A stretch of DNA of 25,267 nucleotides from an uncultured Candidatus Saccharibacteria bacterium (GCA_964477885.1 CAYZHR010000001.1:1-25267), one strand, 5' to 3'. Counted from the first letter of the stretch, positions 1-9,681 are shown. The notes: a model not told the origin generated them from the letters alone. A program made the numbers and translations.

Positions 1-43
1 AAAAATTATCTATAATTTTTTCTGACTAAGACTTCTAACGGGG
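1..43. mobile_element. Right end of MITE-like element, copy A (truncated by window edge)
   Basis: 1-43 is identical to 9209-9251 and ends in the TIR AGACTTCTAACGGGG; it abuts the tsf stop codon (44-46). Confidence 0.85.
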
Positions 44-484
44 TCATATTTGGTAGCGAGCGAACTTTTTAACAATGACGTTTTCGCCTAATCTGGCTAT
101 AACTTCATCAATCAAGTCCTTAACGGTCTTCGCCTCATCTTTTATCCAGGGCTGTTCCAGCAAGAGCGCTTCCTCCTCGCCGAGAGCCGCAATCTGCAAA
201 CATAATTCATGGGCTAAGTTTTGGAAGTCCTGGTTCTTGGCGACAAAATCGGTTTCGCAACCCAGCTCCAAAATAACGCCCACTTTCTTGTTGGGATGAA
301 CATAACTGGCAATAATTCCCTGGCTGGTTGCTCTTTCAGCTTTCTTTTGAGCTAAATTTTTACCCCATTTCTTCAAAATCTCCTTGGCTTGCGCCAAATC
401 GCCCTTAGCTTCTTTTAAAGCTTTCTTGCACTCGGTAATGGAAACTTCCGTTTCTGTTCTCAGTTGTTTGATTTTGTCAATCAT
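44..484 (-). CDS. tsf: Elongation factor Ts, short form (146 aa)
   Basis: N-terminal UBA-like IKQLRTETEVSITECKKAL, ELGCETDFVAKN motif, adjacent to rpsB. Confidence 0.95.
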   Translation of the reverse strand: MIDKIKQLRTETEVSITECKKALKEAKGDLAQAKEILKKWGKNLAQKKAERATSQGIIASYVHPNKKVGVILELGCETDFVAKNQDFQNLAHELCLQIAALGEEEALLLEQPWIKDEAKTVKDLIDEVIARLGENVIVKKFARYQI

Positions 485-499
485 CGAGATTTTAATTCA

Positions 500-1207
500 T
501 CAACTCTTCGCTTTTGGTTTCTTGACGCCTTTGATCGCTTCCTGCACTTTGTCTAAAATATACTTGACCGAAGATATGGCATCGTCACTCGCTGGAACGG
601 GAAAATCCGCTAAGGTGGGATCGGCGTTGGTGTCGCAAATGCCGATTACTTTAATCCCTTTCGCTCTCGCTTCCTTCACCGCCAGCTTATCTTTAATCAT
701 ATCACAAACGAAGATGGCGTCGGGCAAGCGAGTCAGATTCTTGATGCCGCCGAACTTTCTCTCAAATTCCCTTAATTCTTCGTCAATGTCGGCTCTCTCT
801 TTCTTGGTGTATTTTTCCAATTCGCCGGCTGTTTTCTTTCTTTCCAAATCCTTAAAGTATTCTATCCTTTTGAAAATGGAACCGAAATTGGTGAAAGTTC
901 CACCCAGCCACCGCTCAACCACGTAGTAAAAACCGCCGGCTTCAGCCGCTTCCCGAACCACGTCTTTAATCTGGACCTTAGTCCCTACTAACATTAGCGT
1001 TTTGCCTTCGGCGGTAAGTTTCTGGACAAATTCCAAAGCTTCAATCAGTTTTTCTTTGGTTTTTTCCACATCAATAATATGGATAGTGTCTCTGACCCCA
1101 AAAAGAAATGGCTGCATCTTCGGATTGATTTTAGATGTTCGGTGGCCGAAATGGAGACCCTGGCGGGTCATCTCTTCGGTATCGATATTGAATTTTTCTT
1201 TAGTCAT
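500..1207 (-). CDS. rpsB: 30S ribosomal protein S2
   Basis: GLHFGHRTSKINPKM, RWLGGTFTNF and DTNADP motifs. ATG at 1207 preferred over the TTG at 1210, which lies in the element's flanking repeat. Confidence 0.97.
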   Translation of the reverse strand: MTKEKFNIDTEEMTRQGLHFGHRTSKINPKMQPFLFGVRDTIHIIDVEKTKEKLIEALEFVQKLTAEGKTLMLVGTKVQIKDVVREAAEAGGFYYVVERWLGGTFTNFGSIFKRIEYFKDLERKKTAGELEKYTKKERADIDEELREFERKFGGIKNLTRLPDAIFVCDMIKDKLAVKEARAKGIKVIGICDTNADPTLADFPVPASDDAISSVKYILDKVQEAIKGVKKPKAKS

Positions 1208-1210
1208 CAA

Positions 1211-6792: not shown

Positions 6793-6812
6793 ATTTATTT
6801 AAACTTAATGAT

Positions 6813-9152
6813 TTATTTTTTGACCTTTGCTATTTTTAATATTGTTTTAATAACGGCGTCGGGAGTTAAAGACATGCTCTCTATTCCCTCTCGGACCAGA
6901 AATTCGGCGAACCCCGGCAGAGAAGAGGGAGCGTCGCCGCAAATGCCGCAGTATTTTTTTCTTTTTCTGCACTGCCGGATCACTTGGGCAATCATCTTTT
7001 TGACCGCTTCATTCTGCTCATTCCCCACATAACTTATTTTAGCACTATCTCGGTCAATTCCCAAAGTTAACTGTGTCAGGTCGTTGGAACCTATGCTCAT
7101 CCCGTCAAAAATCTCCAAGAATTCTTCCACCAAAACAACGTTGGAGGGAATCTCGCACATCACAATAACCTTCAAGCCGTCTCGGCCTTTTTCCAGGCCC
7201 GCTTCTTTCATTATTTTCAATATTTTTTTGCCTTCTTCCGGTGTGCGGCGGAAAGGCACCATGGCCCAGATGTTTTTCAGACCGAACTCCTCTCTGGCTT
7301 TTTTCAAGGCTTGGCACTCCAAAAGAAAAGCCGGCTTGAACTGCGCGTCATAGTACCTGGAAGCTCCCCGCCAACCCAGCATGGGATTCTGTTCTCGCGG
7401 CTCAAATTCTTCACCGCCGGACAAAGCCGCATATTCGTTGGTCTTAAAATCAGAAAAACGAACGATCGCCGGATAGGGCCAAAAGGCAGCGGCTATCTGG
7501 CCTATGCCTCTGGCTAATTCATCGACAAACTGTTGGCTCTTGCCCTGTTTTATCAAAGCTAAAGGATGAACTCTGATTTTTGAAGCAATAATAAACTCTT
7601 CCCGGGCCAGACCAACGCCGCGATGAGGCAAAAAAGAATTGCGAAAAGCTATTTCGGGAGTGCCGATGTTGACCATTATTTTAGTTTTGATTTTAGGTAT
7701 CTTCTTCAAATTGTATTCTTTCTCCTGCCACTTAACTCTTCCCTGATAAACCCGGCCAACCTCTCCGGAAGAACAATCCATGGTTATCAATTGACCGTTT
7801 TTTAAAATTGAAGTGGCTCTTCCTGTACCCACAATGCAAGACACTCCCAACTCCCGGGAAACGATGGCCGCGTGAGAAGTGCGGCCGCCCAAATCGGTAA
7901 TAATGCCGGCAGCCTTCTTCATAATCGGCTCCCAGTCGGGATCGGTCATCGGCGTCACCAGAATTTCACCCGGTTTGAAACCGCTGATTCCTTTCACGTT
8001 TTTGATGACTCTTACTTTGCCGGCTGAGATTTTTTGGCCGACAGCTATTCCCTCGGCTAAAACTTTGTGACTTTTTCCCGGGAGAGTGTATTCTTTGAAA
8101 GTTGTAGGGACTTTTTGCAAGTGAACTGTCTCTGGCCTGGCTTGAACTATGAAGAGTTGCTTTGACAGTCCGTCTTTAGCCCATTCGATGTCCATAGGTC
8201 TCCCATAATGCTCCTCTATTATTTGAGCCCATCTGGCTAAGGCCAAAATTTCTTTCTCTTCCAGGCAGAATTTATCTCTTTCTTCAGTAGGAATGGAAAC
8301 TTGCGCCAAGCCGCTTCTGCCGTAGATTAACTTTTTCCGTTTGGTGCCCAGGTTTTTGACGATGAGGGGGCTGAAGCCTTGCTTTAAAGTCGGCTTGAAA
8401 ACGTAAAACTCGTCGGGAATAATCTTACCCTGCACCACCATTTCCCCCACGCCGAAGGCTCCCGTAATTAAAACCACGTTGCGAAAACCGGTTTCTGTAT
8501 CCAGGGTGAAGATGACGCCGGCTGAACCCTTGTCGCTTCTTACCATCTTCTGAACGCCAATGCTCAAAGCAATTTTCAAATGATTAAAGCCGCCTTTCTG
8601 ACGATAGGAAATGGCTCGATCGGTGAACAAAGAAGCCAGACATTTCCGACAGGCCTCAAAAAGGTCTTCTTCTCCCCGGACATTGAGAAAAGTTTCGTGC
8701 TGGCCCGCGAAGGAAGCCGAAGGCAAGTCTTCGGCCGTAGCGGAAGAACGAACGGCCACATCGGTATTCTGGCCGTATTTGAGACAAAGTTTTTGGTAAG
8801 CTTTTTTGATTTCTTTCTTCAAATTTTCCGGTAATGAAGCGCGCAAAATCAAACTTCTGATTTCTTTGCCGCGTCTCTGCAGGTTTTTGACGTCATTAAT
8901 ATTCAAACCTTTCAAAATATTCCGAATCTTTTCTTTCAGTTTGTTTTTATTGATAAAATGCCAGTAAGCCCGGGAAGTCAAAGCAAAACCATCGGGCACG
9001 CTGATGCCTTTTTTGGCCAAAGTCTTCTGCATTTCACCCAAAGAGGCGTTTTTCCCTCCGACCAAAGGAACATCGCGAGAGGAAATGTCTTTAAACCACA
9101 AAATAAATTTTTTAGATTTTACCCCGTTAGAAGTCTGTTTTATGTAGCTCAT
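6813..9152 (-). CDS. ppsA: Phosphoenolpyruvate synthase (pyruvate, water dikinase); first ~10 codons come from MITE copy C
   Basis: VGGKNASLGEM, AVRSSATAEDLP, GGRTSHAAIVSRELG phospho-His, SIGSNDLTQ. Confidence 0.95.
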   Translation of the reverse strand: MSYIKQTSNGVKSKKFILWFKDISSRDVPLVGGKNASLGEMQKTLAKKGISVPDGFALTSRAYWHFINKNKLKEKIRNILKGLNINDVKNLQRRGKEIRSLILRASLPENLKKEIKKAYQKLCLKYGQNTDVAVRSSATAEDLPSASFAGQHETFLNVRGEEDLFEACRKCLASLFTDRAISYRQKGGFNHLKIALSIGVQKMVRSDKGSAGVIFTLDTETGFRNVVLITGAFGVGEMVVQGKIIPDEFYVFKPTLKQGFSPLIVKNLGTKRKKLIYGRSGLAQVSIPTEERDKFCLEEKEILALARWAQIIEEHYGRPMDIEWAKDGLSKQLFIVQARPETVHLQKVPTTFKEYTLPGKSHKVLAEGIAVGQKISAGKVRVIKNVKGISGFKPGEILVTPMTDPDWEPIMKKAAGIITDLGGRTSHAAIVSRELGVSCIVGTGRATSILKNGQLITMDCSSGEVGRVYQGRVKWQEKEYNLKKIPKIKTKIMVNIGTPEIAFRNSFLPHRGVGLAREEFIIASKIRVHPLALIKQGKSQQFVDELARGIGQIAAAFWPYPAIVRFSDFKTNEYAALSGGEEFEPREQNPMLGWRGASRYYDAQFKPAFLLECQALKKAREEFGLKNIWAMVPFRRTPEEGKKILKIMKEAGLEKGRDGLKVIVMCEIPSNVVLVEEFLEIFDGMSIGSNDLTQLTLGIDRDSAKISYVGNEQNEAVKKMIAQVIRQCRKRKKYCGICGDAPSSLPGFAEFLVREGIESMSLTPDAVIKTILKIAKVKK

Positions 9153-9251
9153 AGTGAATTTCAGATAGATTTTTGTTTTTAGTTTTTACCTCGTTATTGC
9201 CCTGCAGAAAAAATTATCTATAATTTTTTCTGACTAAGACTTCTAACGGGG
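9122..9251. mobile_element. MITE-like element, copy C (130 bp)
   Basis: Same 15 bp TIRs as copy B; TTTA on both flanks (9118-9121 and 9252-9255). Confidence 0.85.
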
Positions 9252-9252
9252 T

Positions 9253-9681
9253 TTATTGGCATTTGGCTGAACTAATAGGATTATCTATTTCCATGGAAAG
9301 GCCGGCCGATTCAACGCACCAGTGATTGCCCGCTTTGGCGACTAAAGGAGTGGAAACAGCGAAGCTTCTCTTGTCGGCACTTTCGTAGCACTTTACCGCT
9401 TGACTGCCGTTTTCTTTTTTAATGGCCGTTTCCAAAAGACCGAAGTCGCCGCTGTTGTTTAAAGTGTTGTCTGACTCGTCGCACACAAAAGTGTAACTCT
9501 CGTTATTGTTGATATAGCTCATTTCAGCCGCATTCCTGACCTGATGCATGAGCGATTGAATATTGGCGTCACTCGCTTGGAACCTGGTACCCCGCACGTT
9601 AACCAAAACAATGGCAGCCAAGAGGCCGATTATGGCGACAACCACCATTAACTCTATCAGGGTGAAAGATTTTGTTTTCAT
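9253..9681 (-). CDS. Type IV pilin-like protein
   Basis: Class III signal peptide SFTLIELMVVVAIIGLLAAIV (Ser rather than Gly before Phe+1); C-terminal Cys pairs. Confidence 0.85.
   Translation of the reverse strand: MKTKSFTLIELMVVVAIIGLLAAIVLVNVRGTRFQASDANIQSLMHQVRNAAEMSYINNNESYTFVCDESDNTLNNSGDFGLLETAIKKENGSQAVKCYESADKRSFAVSTPLVAKAGNHWCVESAGLSMEIDNPISSAKCQ

Follow-up and report, generated by a model that had tools for sequence, protein, structure and literature searches.

Short inverted-repeat elements on the start and stop codons of CPR genes and their GIY-YIG-encoding relatives

Element copies in the window and their host genes

The window, that is, the whole analysed stretch of 25,267 nucleotides from an uncultured Candidatus Saccharibacteria bacterium, carries on its minus strand tsf (EF-Ts, 44..484), rpsB (ribosomal protein S2, 500..1207), ppsA (PEP synthase, 6813..9152) and a pilin-like (N_methyl) gene (9253..9681), and on the plus strand a gene for a pyrH-like kinase (1391..2077). 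Interspersed with these genes is a ~130-nt element, flanked by 4-5-bp duplications and present as two full copies and a third that is cut by the window edge, all in a single orientation and co-directional with the minus-strand genes. The perfect 15-bp inverted termini described in the initial annotation are indeed there: CCCCGTTAGAAGTCT is found exactly at 1211-1225(+) and 9122-9136(+), and in reverse-complement form at 29-43, 1328-1342 and 9237-9251. These 5 exact matches compare with a mean of 0.54 in shuffled sequences, which were even allowed 3 mismatches. A fourth weak match, at 11021, lies within coding DNA, lacks the termini and was dismissed as a chance hit. The complete copies are 130-132 nt long and contain no conserved ORF, which places them within the size range of MITEs (<~500 bp without a transposase ORF); they also display the terminal inverted repeats and the fixed-length target duplication, with empty sites elsewhere, that define such elements. 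The interiors of the two complete copies are 73-76% identical, close to the three-quarters estimated by eye; among copies within one genome this identity is 46-80%, and no recent burst is seen. As to the high-copy family suggested in the initial annotation, 4 copies were counted across ~34 kb of source-genome sequence.

Copy B (132 nt, 1211..1342, minus strand; termini 1211-1225 and 1328-1342) occupies the spacer between rpsB and the pyrH-like gene, the divergent neighbor of the copy, immediately 5' of the rpsB ATG. It is flanked by the tetramer TTGA on the minus strand (TCAA/TCAA as originally recorded), gene-proximal at 1207..1210 and distal at 1343..1346, and the final A of the gene-proximal TTGA is at the same time the first base of the rpsB ATG (1207-1205); the empty orthologous site in relatives reads TTGATG at the rpsB start. 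Within the copy, an A-run/T-run hairpin CAGAAAAAATTT..AAATTTTTTCTG (1295..1323, strand not applicable) is accompanied by a terminus-like block CTAATAACGGGG on the minus strand (1279..1290), which pairs with the left terminus as a 9-bp inverted repeat.

Copy C (130 nt, 9122..9251, minus strand; termini 9122-9136 and 9237-9251) is inserted at codons 3-4 of ppsA, which now bears it at its 5' end, and at the stop codon of the upstream pilin-like gene. Its duplication, TAAA on the minus strand (TTTA/TTTA on the plus strand, again as first described), is found gene-proximally at 9118..9121 and distally at 9252..9255, the latter tetramer including the TAA with which the pilin-like gene ends; in relatives, the empty site is located at ppsA codons 3-4. 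The interior contains the hairpin CAGAAAAAATTAT..ATAATTTTTTCTG (9205..9232, strand not applicable). Copy C provides ppsA with a replacement ATG: the ATG at 9150..9152 (minus strand), within the element, now heads the ppsA ORF (MSYIKQTSNGV + KSKKFILWF...), and the ppsA annotated in the window accordingly has an element-derived N-terminus. The former start (ATG 9262-9260), assigned on the basis of the homologue N-termini MPIKSKKFILWF, has turned into the start of a 14-codon uORF, MPINPVRSLSQKKL*, whose 3' part lies within the element (9218..9262, minus strand).

Copy A (1..43, minus strand) is cut at the window edge. Read in the gene sense, it retains its first 43 nt, which comprise the left terminus and, from the interior hairpin, the 5' half. 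The reported identity between the ends of copies A and C holds, positions 1-44 matching 9209-9252 at 100%; the two copies have their first 48 nt in common, yet differ in their flanks. The complete copy A is found in the sister contig L001 at 9671-9940, flanked by TATGA/TATGA, with a second, diverged copy of the element nested inside it (L001 9778-9910). Another contig, L005, terminates inside a nested copy, an assembly break. In the window, the target duplication TATGA (44..48, minus strand; TCATA on the plus strand) holds the TGA stop of tsf, and its off-window duplicate holds the start codon (ATG) of the gene that follows. In relatives, a single CAAATATGAT is present here, in which the two genes overlap by ATGA; copy A, inserted into this stop/start overlap, regenerates stop and start alike.

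Mobility of the element

The initial annotation read the copies as mobile, non-autonomous elements of a CPR bacterium and asked for empty sites in relatives. The host is a CPR bacterium, placed in Ca. Nealsonbacteria CG09, and exact, uninterrupted orthologous sites were found for all three window copies, each matching at the nucleotide level the window sequence minus the element. Together with the nested insertions and the 4-bp duplications in ~72% of 124 copies, these sites bear out mobility. They also weigh heavily against the view that the copies are fixed, non-mobile elements with a structural or regulatory role as RNA or DNA, such as a leader or a terminator-promoter cassette, conserved in place. 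The strong folds on both strands (z = -6.4 to -7.5), the covariation in the interior hairpin and the biased orientation relative to the downstream gene (44 vs 17) would all suit such an element; the empty sites at 3/3 positions, the variable duplicated flanks, the nested copies and the unrelated host genes in different lineages would not. Furthermore, copy B yielded no promoter or terminator consensus, and Rfam 15 gave 0 matches in the window at the gathering score (chance matches only, 19-23 bits as against the 70-100 needed). As a primary explanation, fixation in place is refuted and we consider it extremely improbable, allowing for a possible secondary role in expression.

The same termini, CCCCGTTAGAA(G/A)...(C/T)TTCTAACGGGG, recur across many CPR classes and lineages, at >113 loci in GTDB species-representative genomes, and a 12-nt terminal core is common to >120 copies; the search pattern demanded perfect termini, so that this census is biased towards intact copies. 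The 4-bp duplication is exact in 89/124 copies, compared to 9.7 in shuffled pairings, and is practically absent at every other offset (0-2), and on these counts the alternative notation of ACCCC...GGGGT ends with a 2-bp duplication is rejected. The target can be written as A|T(G/A)A(A/G), the typical case being the ATGAA of a gene start, and TGAA, TATG, TAAA and TTGA dominate among the flanking tetramers. Nested copies are seen in L001 and L070. The interior hairpin is kept in 62/65 short copies, albeit with 64 different stems. These copies make up one coherent lineage, which indicates that they propagate as short elements and are not independent in-place deletions.

Full-length elements with a GIY-YIG gene

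Besides the short copies, the family includes elements of ~282 bp (281-285 bp) that have the same termini, duplication length and target and encode an 86-93-aa GIY-YIG nuclease from the UPF0213/SLX1-like branch. At the locus L028, for instance, a 282-nt element with these termini and a TGAA duplication harbors an interior GIY-YIG ORF (Pfam PF01541, E 2e-17), and in one genome with this locus a short and a full-length copy are 470 nt apart. When 80 metagenome loci were picked by protein similarity alone, both termini were found, 281-291 nt apart, at 75 of them, and an exact 4-bp duplication with the same set of tetramers at 52. Full-length elements occupy 61 distinct insertion sites in unrelated genes (4-bp duplications at 40/54), and their target logo agrees with that of the short copies. 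GIY-YIG is the sole ORF ever found between these termini. A full-length element is present at only 1/114 loci around short copies, and no GIY-YIG gene was found in the window or in the 34 kb of the source genome.

The nuclease gene is interwoven with the ends of the element. The ORF often begins at a host ATG, crosses the left terminus, which is read as NPVRS, and ends at the right-terminus TAA, a junction logic that is directly visible in L120 and L122; 56/120 homologues start with x-NPVRS after variable, host-derived prefixes, and most of them finish with D/G-F-stop. The ORF is open in 24/24 distinct 282-nt elements with an N/S ratio of 0.33, so that, judging from these comparisons, it is under purifying selection. 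The termini carry an extra constraint: even their third codon positions show conservation of at least 96%, as compared to 67% at interior third positions. The closest structures belong to UPF0213 and SLX1 (1ZG2, E 1e-6; also 4XLG, 7WME and 1YWL). The catalytic residues are conserved: across 30 sequences, Y12, Y23, G25, R33, H37, E57 and N83 never vary.

This architecture has to be weighed against a classical MITE scenario, in which the short copies, with the GIY-YIG cassettes as passengers, would be moved by the DDE transposase of a rare full-length IS. Terminal inverted repeats with 4-5-bp duplications are the usual DDE signature. On formal grounds, judged by the ends and the size of the duplication, the IS1380/piggyBac-like group would suit best: the ends of IS1380 are CC with repeats of 4-5 bp, and piggyBac has CCC...GGG ends and a 4-bp TTAA target. 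The likeness, by description, of CC(C)...GG(G) ends is offset by the size of the CPR elements (130-285 bp), by a target of T-N-N-R instead of TTAA and by the absence of a DDE transposase from the loci scanned. Specifically, no terminus pairs 0.3-4 kb apart with a transposase ORF turned up in ~0.9 Mb of genome loci plus the 80 metagenome loci, nor any 0.7-2.5-kb DDE element among terminus pairs or solo termini in ~1.3 Mb of loci; the DDE-type partner initially postulated thus found no counterpart in the related loci. Nor would a mere passenger be expected to have its reading frame built into both termini and to stay under purifying selection. We therefore regard the DDE scenario as unlikely.

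A possible mechanism of mobilization

We consider it fairly probable that the window copies are ORF-less, non-autonomous members of a family widespread in the CPR and mobilized in trans by the GIY-YIG nuclease, the role of the enzyme being an inference. The broader proposal appears to us evenly balanced: the family would be a new class of prokaryotic transposable elements, with a ~282-bp autonomous unit, about as small as such a unit could be, carrying one ~90-aa SLX1/UPF0213-like GIY-YIG gene within palindromic termini, and with MITE-like derivatives throughout the CPR. Such a unit would make a 4-bp duplication in the first codons of a host gene, borrow the ribosome-binding site and the ATG of the host, and return a replacement start. 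We know of no precedent for a GIY-YIG-only transposon. An unseen enzyme that moved both forms would likewise leave them with common termini and targets.

The following sequence of events can be envisaged. The nuclease, supplied in trans, would recognize the palindromic termini, perhaps folded into a hairpin or cruciform, in the manner of structure-specific SLX1-type enzymes. Insertion takes place at T-N-N-purine, with a preference for A|TGAA (the start codon and the first bases of a Lys/Asn codon). Since the duplication is 4 bp, sometimes 5, the cut would have a 4-nt stagger, followed by gap filling. The nuclease would make the cuts, and, as it cannot itself join DNA, host repair and ligation must be assumed to complete the insertion. 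In the full-length element, the nuclease ORF would take over the host ATG, read the left terminus as N-P-V-R-S and stop at a TAA or TGA of the right terminus; the host gene would restart a few nucleotides further on, using the right-end ATG (ATG ACT TCT AAC GGG G..), a junction GTG or the duplicated ATG. Survival in gene-dense genomes would then follow from the elements being built to sit on gene starts.

A different route would be nuclease-driven copying, whereby a break made by the GIY-YIG enzyme at T-N-N-R is entered by ligation of a matching 4-nt overhang from the donor flank or by repair templated, through microhomology, on another copy, the apparent duplication being inherited from the donor. 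This route requires no strand-transfer chemistry and would account for the dominance of a few tetramers and for the L131 locus, where a tandem insertion lies exactly in the TGAA flank of another copy. Tetramers are also shared more commonly among related copies than among unrelated ones (5/5 at >=90% identity, ~42% at 70-90% and 8% at <70%), in a comparison confounded by orientation calls, orthologous copies and selection for start-codon sites. On the other hand, the related window copies differ in their flanks (TATGA, TTGA and TAAA), and the empty sites carry one tetramer, as with ordinary duplication. We rate this route as unlikely, slightly below the DDE scenario. Since close copies tend to share tetramers, a sticky-end or microhomology mechanism may nonetheless apply in place of classical duplication.

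Implications for CPR genomes

CPR bacteria (Patescibacteria) have very small genomes that are densely packed with genes and regarded as poor in transposons. A family of 130-285-bp elements has nevertheless colonized many CPR lineages by landing on start and stop codons. Their presence changes the N-termini and start codons that are predicted for housekeeping genes, creates uORFs and breaks assemblies. If the ~90-aa GIY-YIG protein is the mobilizer, a nuclease-only mechanism would take its place beside the DDE, HUH, serine and tyrosine chemistries, and the family would represent a near-minimal autonomous mobile element and a tractable system of one tiny protein and 12-15-bp ends.

The family could also account for the spread of GIY-YIG genes from Patescibacteria by horizontal transfer that has been reported (PMC12455944), as well as for the non-intron, GIY-YIG-encoding insertions described in CPR rRNA genes (PMC11270868). 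The latter may belong to the same family, although the accessible part of that report makes no mention of termini, duplications, short derivatives or start-codon targeting (PMC11270868).

Comparison with known systems

The closest analogy among short elements is offered by the Correia/NEMIS elements, the MITEs of Neisseria, which likewise are 100-150 bp long, have long terminal inverted repeats and short target duplications, and are dispersed in many copies at gene boundaries, where they are co-transcribed with neighboring genes; to our knowledge, they have no assigned transposase. Their termini, however, are unrelated, their duplication is TA instead of 4 bp at T-N-N-R, and they are confined to one genus, whereas the present family spans many class- and phylum-level CPR lineages, sits precisely on start and stop codons, and has coding relatives with a GIY-YIG nuclease and no transposase. 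The Rickettsia palindromic elements are similar by description, being small palindromes of reduced genomes that are tolerated, in frame, within or at the ends of coding genes; we know of no enzyme, clear duplication or start-codon logic associated with them.

GIY-YIG homing endonucleases, whether free-standing or encoded in introns (I-TevI, the T4 Seg proteins), resemble the CPR gene as selfishly spreading nuclease genes with an intact, selected catalytic domain. Homing, however, is directed to one cognate allele, proceeds via homologous repair and leaves no duplication, whereas the CPR gene resides within inverted repeats at many unrelated sites with 4-bp duplications and encodes a bare ~90-aa catalytic domain without a DNA-binding extension (28 bits with NCBIfam grpIintron_endo, cutoff 56). 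Among proteins of solved structure, the UPF0213 (YhbQ-type) and SLX1 proteins come closest in sequence and share the same small GIY-YIG core; unlike the CPR nuclease, they are host housekeeping or repair proteins not known to be repeat-bounded or mobile. SLX1 cuts branched and hairpin DNA, a habit that, by analogy, would fit the palindromic termini.

Two further systems were considered and rejected. The attC sites of integrons consist of R''/R' core sites (RYYYAAC / GTTRRRY) at cassette ends beside an integron integrase and show no duplication; the likeness is limited to a by-eye resemblance of GTTAGAA, and the elements have housekeeping flanks and duplications, with no integrase in the window. 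REP/REPIN sequences are 20-40-bp GC-rich palindromes (GTAG/CGTC tag) that flank a Y1/HUH RAYT gene and lack duplications, whereas the elements described here differ from them in sequence and carry duplications. A transposase-like gene is present in the window, encoding a RAYT-like Y1/HUH enzyme (13325-14041), which was discarded as a mobilizer: its chemistry makes no duplications, and it is flanked by hairpin repeats of its own that are unrelated to the element.

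Copies in the window and their empty sites

The window contains five exact matches to the 15-mer CCCCGTTAGAAGTCT. Two of them, at 1211 and 9122, are left ends, and three, in reverse complement, are right ends (29-43, 1328-1342 and 9237-9251); the shuffled window gave 0.54 matches to it, even with 3 mismatches permitted. These termini bound three ~130-nt elements, namely, copy A, cut by the window edge (1-43; nucleotides 1-44 are identical to 9209-9252), copy B (1211-1342), flanked on both sides by TCAA, and copy C (9122-9251), flanked by TTTA. Taken together, the 15-mer matches, the shuffles and the matching flanks confirm the three-copy repeat with inverted termini and flanking duplications described in the initial annotation. 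The interiors of the full copies, judged there by eye to be three-quarters identical, measure ~75%, and the single orientation of the copies, also noticed at that stage, is borne out and follows that of the neighbouring minus-strand genes. A fourth, weak repeat match (11021-11050) lies in coding DNA, lacks the termini and was attributed to chance; tRNA and tmRNA genes were sought in the window, and none was found. The same insertions are present in sister contigs from five other samples. On the sister contig L001, copy A is complete (9671-9940, with TATGA on both flanks) and a second, diverged copy is nested inside it (9778-9910). The elements break short-read assemblies, as in contig L005 (Ga0210051_1051165), which terminates exactly where the nested inner copy of site A begins.

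Copy A adjoins the tsf stop codon, copy B is located between the divergent pyrH and rpsB, immediately before the rpsB ATG, and copy C separates a pilin-like gene from ppsA, the called ATG of which falls within the element. Empty sites, proposed earlier as a check of mobility, were found for all three copies: relatives whose S2 or PpsA proteins are 71-80% identical share the gene order but are without the elements. At site A, tsf of the related loci L207 and L209 overlaps the same 116-aa gene as ...gataccaaatATGAT..., and the window, minus the element and one duplicated copy, reads ...GCTACCAAATATGACAG.... At site B, the rpsB start is ...ctagagaTTGATGACGG... in L207 vs ...ttagaacTTGATGACTAAAG... 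in the window, the pyrH-rpsB spacer being 183 nt in the window vs 47-107 nt in the relatives. At site C, the related locus L212 has ...ttagttcagctatATGCCAATAAAGTCAAAAAAATTC... vs ...TTAGTTCAGCCAAATGCCAATAAAATCTAAAAAATTT... in the window, and PpsA homologues begin with MPIKSKKFILWF, identical to the N-terminus that was deduced for the gene in the window. An example of a filled or reconstructed empty junction is GCTACCAAATATGACAGAAAT. A 771-aa protein (P0244) was considered as a candidate empty-site allele of ppsA and rejected, as it belongs to a different lineage.

By this comparison, copies A, B and C are insertions: copy A lies in an ATGA stop/start overlap, of which both codons are regenerated, copy B in the TTGA/TG of the rpsB start, and copy C in codons 3-4 of ppsA. 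The ancestral ppsA ATG now opens a 14-codon uORF (MPINPVRSLSQKKL, then a stop), and the predicted restart is an ATG within copy C, giving MSYIKQTSNGV-KSKKFILWF. In the public record, PEP synthase (779 aa, P0242; window 6813-9152) is annotated from this element-derived ATG, so that the 11 residues at its N-terminus (MSYIKQTSNGV) come from the mobile element and replace the ancestral MPI. Because of the empty sites, a fixed RNA element is excluded as the primary explanation of the repeat; Rfam, too, yielded no match in the window in either gathering or permissive mode.

Census and target sites

A search of species-representative genomes for the paired termini, which required both termini to be intact, returned more than 113 loci across many CPR lineages (Nealson-, Staskawicz-, Falkow-, Kaiser-, Uhr-, Taylor-, Wildermuth-, Jorgensen- and Sungiibacteria, Kazan, and bins labelled Saccharibacteria). 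Element lengths are concentrated at 130-132 nt; there are also mini versions (33-81 nt) and additional nested copies. The duplication expected from the initial annotation proved consistent in these further copies: an exact 4-bp direct repeat flanks 89 of 124 (5 bp in 7), compared with 9.7 (maximum 20) under shuffled pairing and 0-2 at other offsets. The alternative reading of ACCCC...GGGGT ends with a 2-bp duplication is thus rejected, as the census offsets support 4 bp only. The duplicated tetramers are TGAA, TATG, TTGA, TAAA and TATA, along with their reverse complements; the commonest site is ATGAA, in which case the right junction reads G/TGAA, a GTG start. The interior allowed 65 copies to be oriented; among these, a gene leads away from the right end in 44 cases vs 17. 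A comparison of the relatedness of copies with their sharing of flanking tetramers was confounded. Viral contigs scanned for the short and full-length forms gave 0 matches and, hence, no evidence of phage carriage.

Full-length elements encode a GIY-YIG nuclease

Locus L028 carries an element of 282 nt that has the same termini, is flanked by a TGAA duplication and consists, in its interior, of a 93-aa GIY-YIG ORF (Pfam E 2e-17). The start codon of this ORF is the flanking ATG (ATG AA/C CCC GTT AGA AGT = MNPVRS), and its stop is the TAA within the right terminus. A protein search returned 956 relatives; of the best 120 of these, 56 open with x-NPVRS after variable prefixes (MNPVRS, MSTNINPVRS, MEKTQKINPVRS...), and most end in D/G-F-stop. 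In an unbiased sample of 80 loci picked by protein similarity only, both termini, 281-291 nt apart, were present in 75, with an exact 4-bp duplication in 52 of these. In the 61 distinct full-length insertions, the ORF stops at the terminal TAA (40) or at a TGA 7 nt earlier (6), and takes its ATG from the flanking ATGAA (19), from further into the host codons (about a dozen) or from within the element (~20). Full-length and short copies have matching target logos (A at -1, followed by T, G/A, A, A/G, and nothing further), the T after -1 being found in 100% of the former and 83% of the latter.

Two gene contexts display the junction logic directly. At L120, the element is inserted where a hisF-like and a hisH-like gene overlap as ATGA, with a predicted host restart ATG ACT TCT AAC GGG GTG AAA; at L122, it is found five codons into hsdM, with a TAAA duplication, and the TGA that ends the nuclease ORF overlaps with the ATG of the predicted restart. 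At L131 (~1750-2060), a full-length element is inserted in the TGAA flank right after the right terminus of the preceding element (...GACTTCTAACGGGG TGAA CCCCGTTAGAAG...), a case of tandem re-targeting of a regenerated site.

The ORF is open in all 24 distinct 282-nt elements, and single-site codon differences comprise 5964 synonymous vs 1940 nonsynonymous ones, a ratio of 0.33 as compared to a neutral expectation of ~3. Conservation is 67% at the third positions of the interior, but at least 96% at every codon position of the terminal 11-12 nt. The catalytic-type residues are invariant; the nearest solved structures are those of UPF0213 proteins and SLX1, and the I-TevI-type model scored far below the cutoff. 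Sequence conservation points to a functional nuclease and to termini that act in cis.

Interior plan and folding of the short copies

In the subfamily of oriented short copies, the interior order is fixed: the left terminus is followed by an A-run/T-run hairpin (62 of 65 copies have it, and its stems are of 64 different kinds), then by TAACGGGG, an internal block resembling the right terminus, then by another hairpin (GTCTGTCT..AGACAGAC) and, finally, by the right terminus. Copies outside this subfamily have the termini alone in common. At L046 (1325-1454), a short copy carries a 30-nt termini-only mini-palindrome (CCCCGTTAGAAATTTTATTTCTAACGGGG) instead of the A/T hairpin, which could be either a nested mini-element at that spot or a hairpin swap.

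Because of loop-length variation, RNAalifold recovered only the terminal stem from the subfamily alignment, and per-copy folding was used instead. At terminal stem positions 13-14 of the 65 oriented short copies, the mismatches on the gene-sense strand are 13 C-A vs 2 U-G. The C-A excess is wobble-compatible on the antisense strand only, a thin hint that this strand folds; the counts, being few and non-independent, are insufficient to decide between RNA and single-stranded DNA or between the strands. A promoter/terminator consensus scan of copy B detected nothing inside it, and a '-10-like TATATAA' spotted by eye near the right end was dropped for want of a suitably spaced -35.

Proposed mechanism

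We propose that the GIY-YIG nuclease, as the inferred mobilising enzyme, acts in trans on the short copies, which would be the non-autonomous part of the family. The nuclease would recognise the palindromic termini, perhaps in hairpin or cruciform form, and cut with a 4-nt stagger at T-N-N-R; host functions would then fill and seal, and selection would retain only those insertions in which the host gene is preserved by the frame logic. The initial annotation had likewise considered the elements mobile and non-autonomous, which stands, but assigned them a DDE-type transposase acting in trans, which is not supported. Such a hidden enzyme is a rival of the nuclease; however, a termini-pair search of about 1.3 Mb of related loci revealed no long, IS-like partner with these ends, the 2.27-kb candidate at L070 being a nested insertion plus a chance degenerate match. 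Copying by a sticky-end or microhomology route is another rival. The nuclease model has weaknesses of its own: to our knowledge, a nuclease-only transposon has no precedent, no GIY-YIG gene was found in the window or L001, a full-length copy near short ones is rare (1 of 114 loci), interiors within one genome are only 46-80% identical, and the census was confined to intact termini.

We classify the finding as a MITE-like family with a GIY-YIG nuclease as its coding partner; the odds that it represents a new class of transposon are roughly even. Neither the terminus sequence, nor CPR MITEs, nor a GIY-YIG transposon or cassette was found described in open-access full text; non-intron insertions encoding GIY-YIG proteins are reported in CPR rRNA genes (PMC11270868). 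Exact termini were also observed in bins labelled Gammaproteobacteria, Syntrophobacter, delta proteobacterium, Elusimicrobiota and Planctomycetota (L012, L025, L030, L039, L044, L052, L063, L080, L081, L083, L085). This could be due to mislabelling or misbinning, or to true transfer out of CPR, GIY-YIG genes being among those reported as transferred out of Patescibacteria (PMC12455944).

Other putative small mobile DNA

L051 carries, at ~3480-3740 on the minus strand, another type of small GIY-YIG ORF (38% identical). A perfect 15-bp inverted repeat of its own (ATGAATTCAAAAATG...CATTTTTGAATTCAT) bounds this ORF, which seems to be located within a tRNA-like sequence; this suggests that several families of tiny GIY-YIG genes bounded by terminal inverted repeats exist in CPR. 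A further GIY-YIG gene (L041 7155-7376, minus strand; 42% identical) is located between two tRNA-like direct repeats (GCGGGGTAGAGAAGTAGTATCTCG.. and GCGGGGTGGAGGAGTAGTACCTCG..).

LAGLIDADG homing-endonuclease ORFs downstream of the tsf region (L001 12584-13180; L207 7411-8034) are probably part of an rRNA-gene insertion, a common occurrence in CPR.

The window also contains, on the minus strand, a RAYT-like Y1/HUH transposase ORF (13325-14041; Pfam Y1_Tnp E 3e-10; NCBIfam REP-associated tyrosine transposase 50.6 bits, under the cutoff of 80) with the motifs PNHLHLLL and VYIHTNPV. REP-like GC hairpins (CAGACGAGAA-N4-TTCTCGTCGG) flank it at 14044-14076 and 13288-13320, and a third copy (13843-13875) lies in frame within the gene; this locus (13288-14076) is unrelated to the CCCCGTTAGAAG elements.
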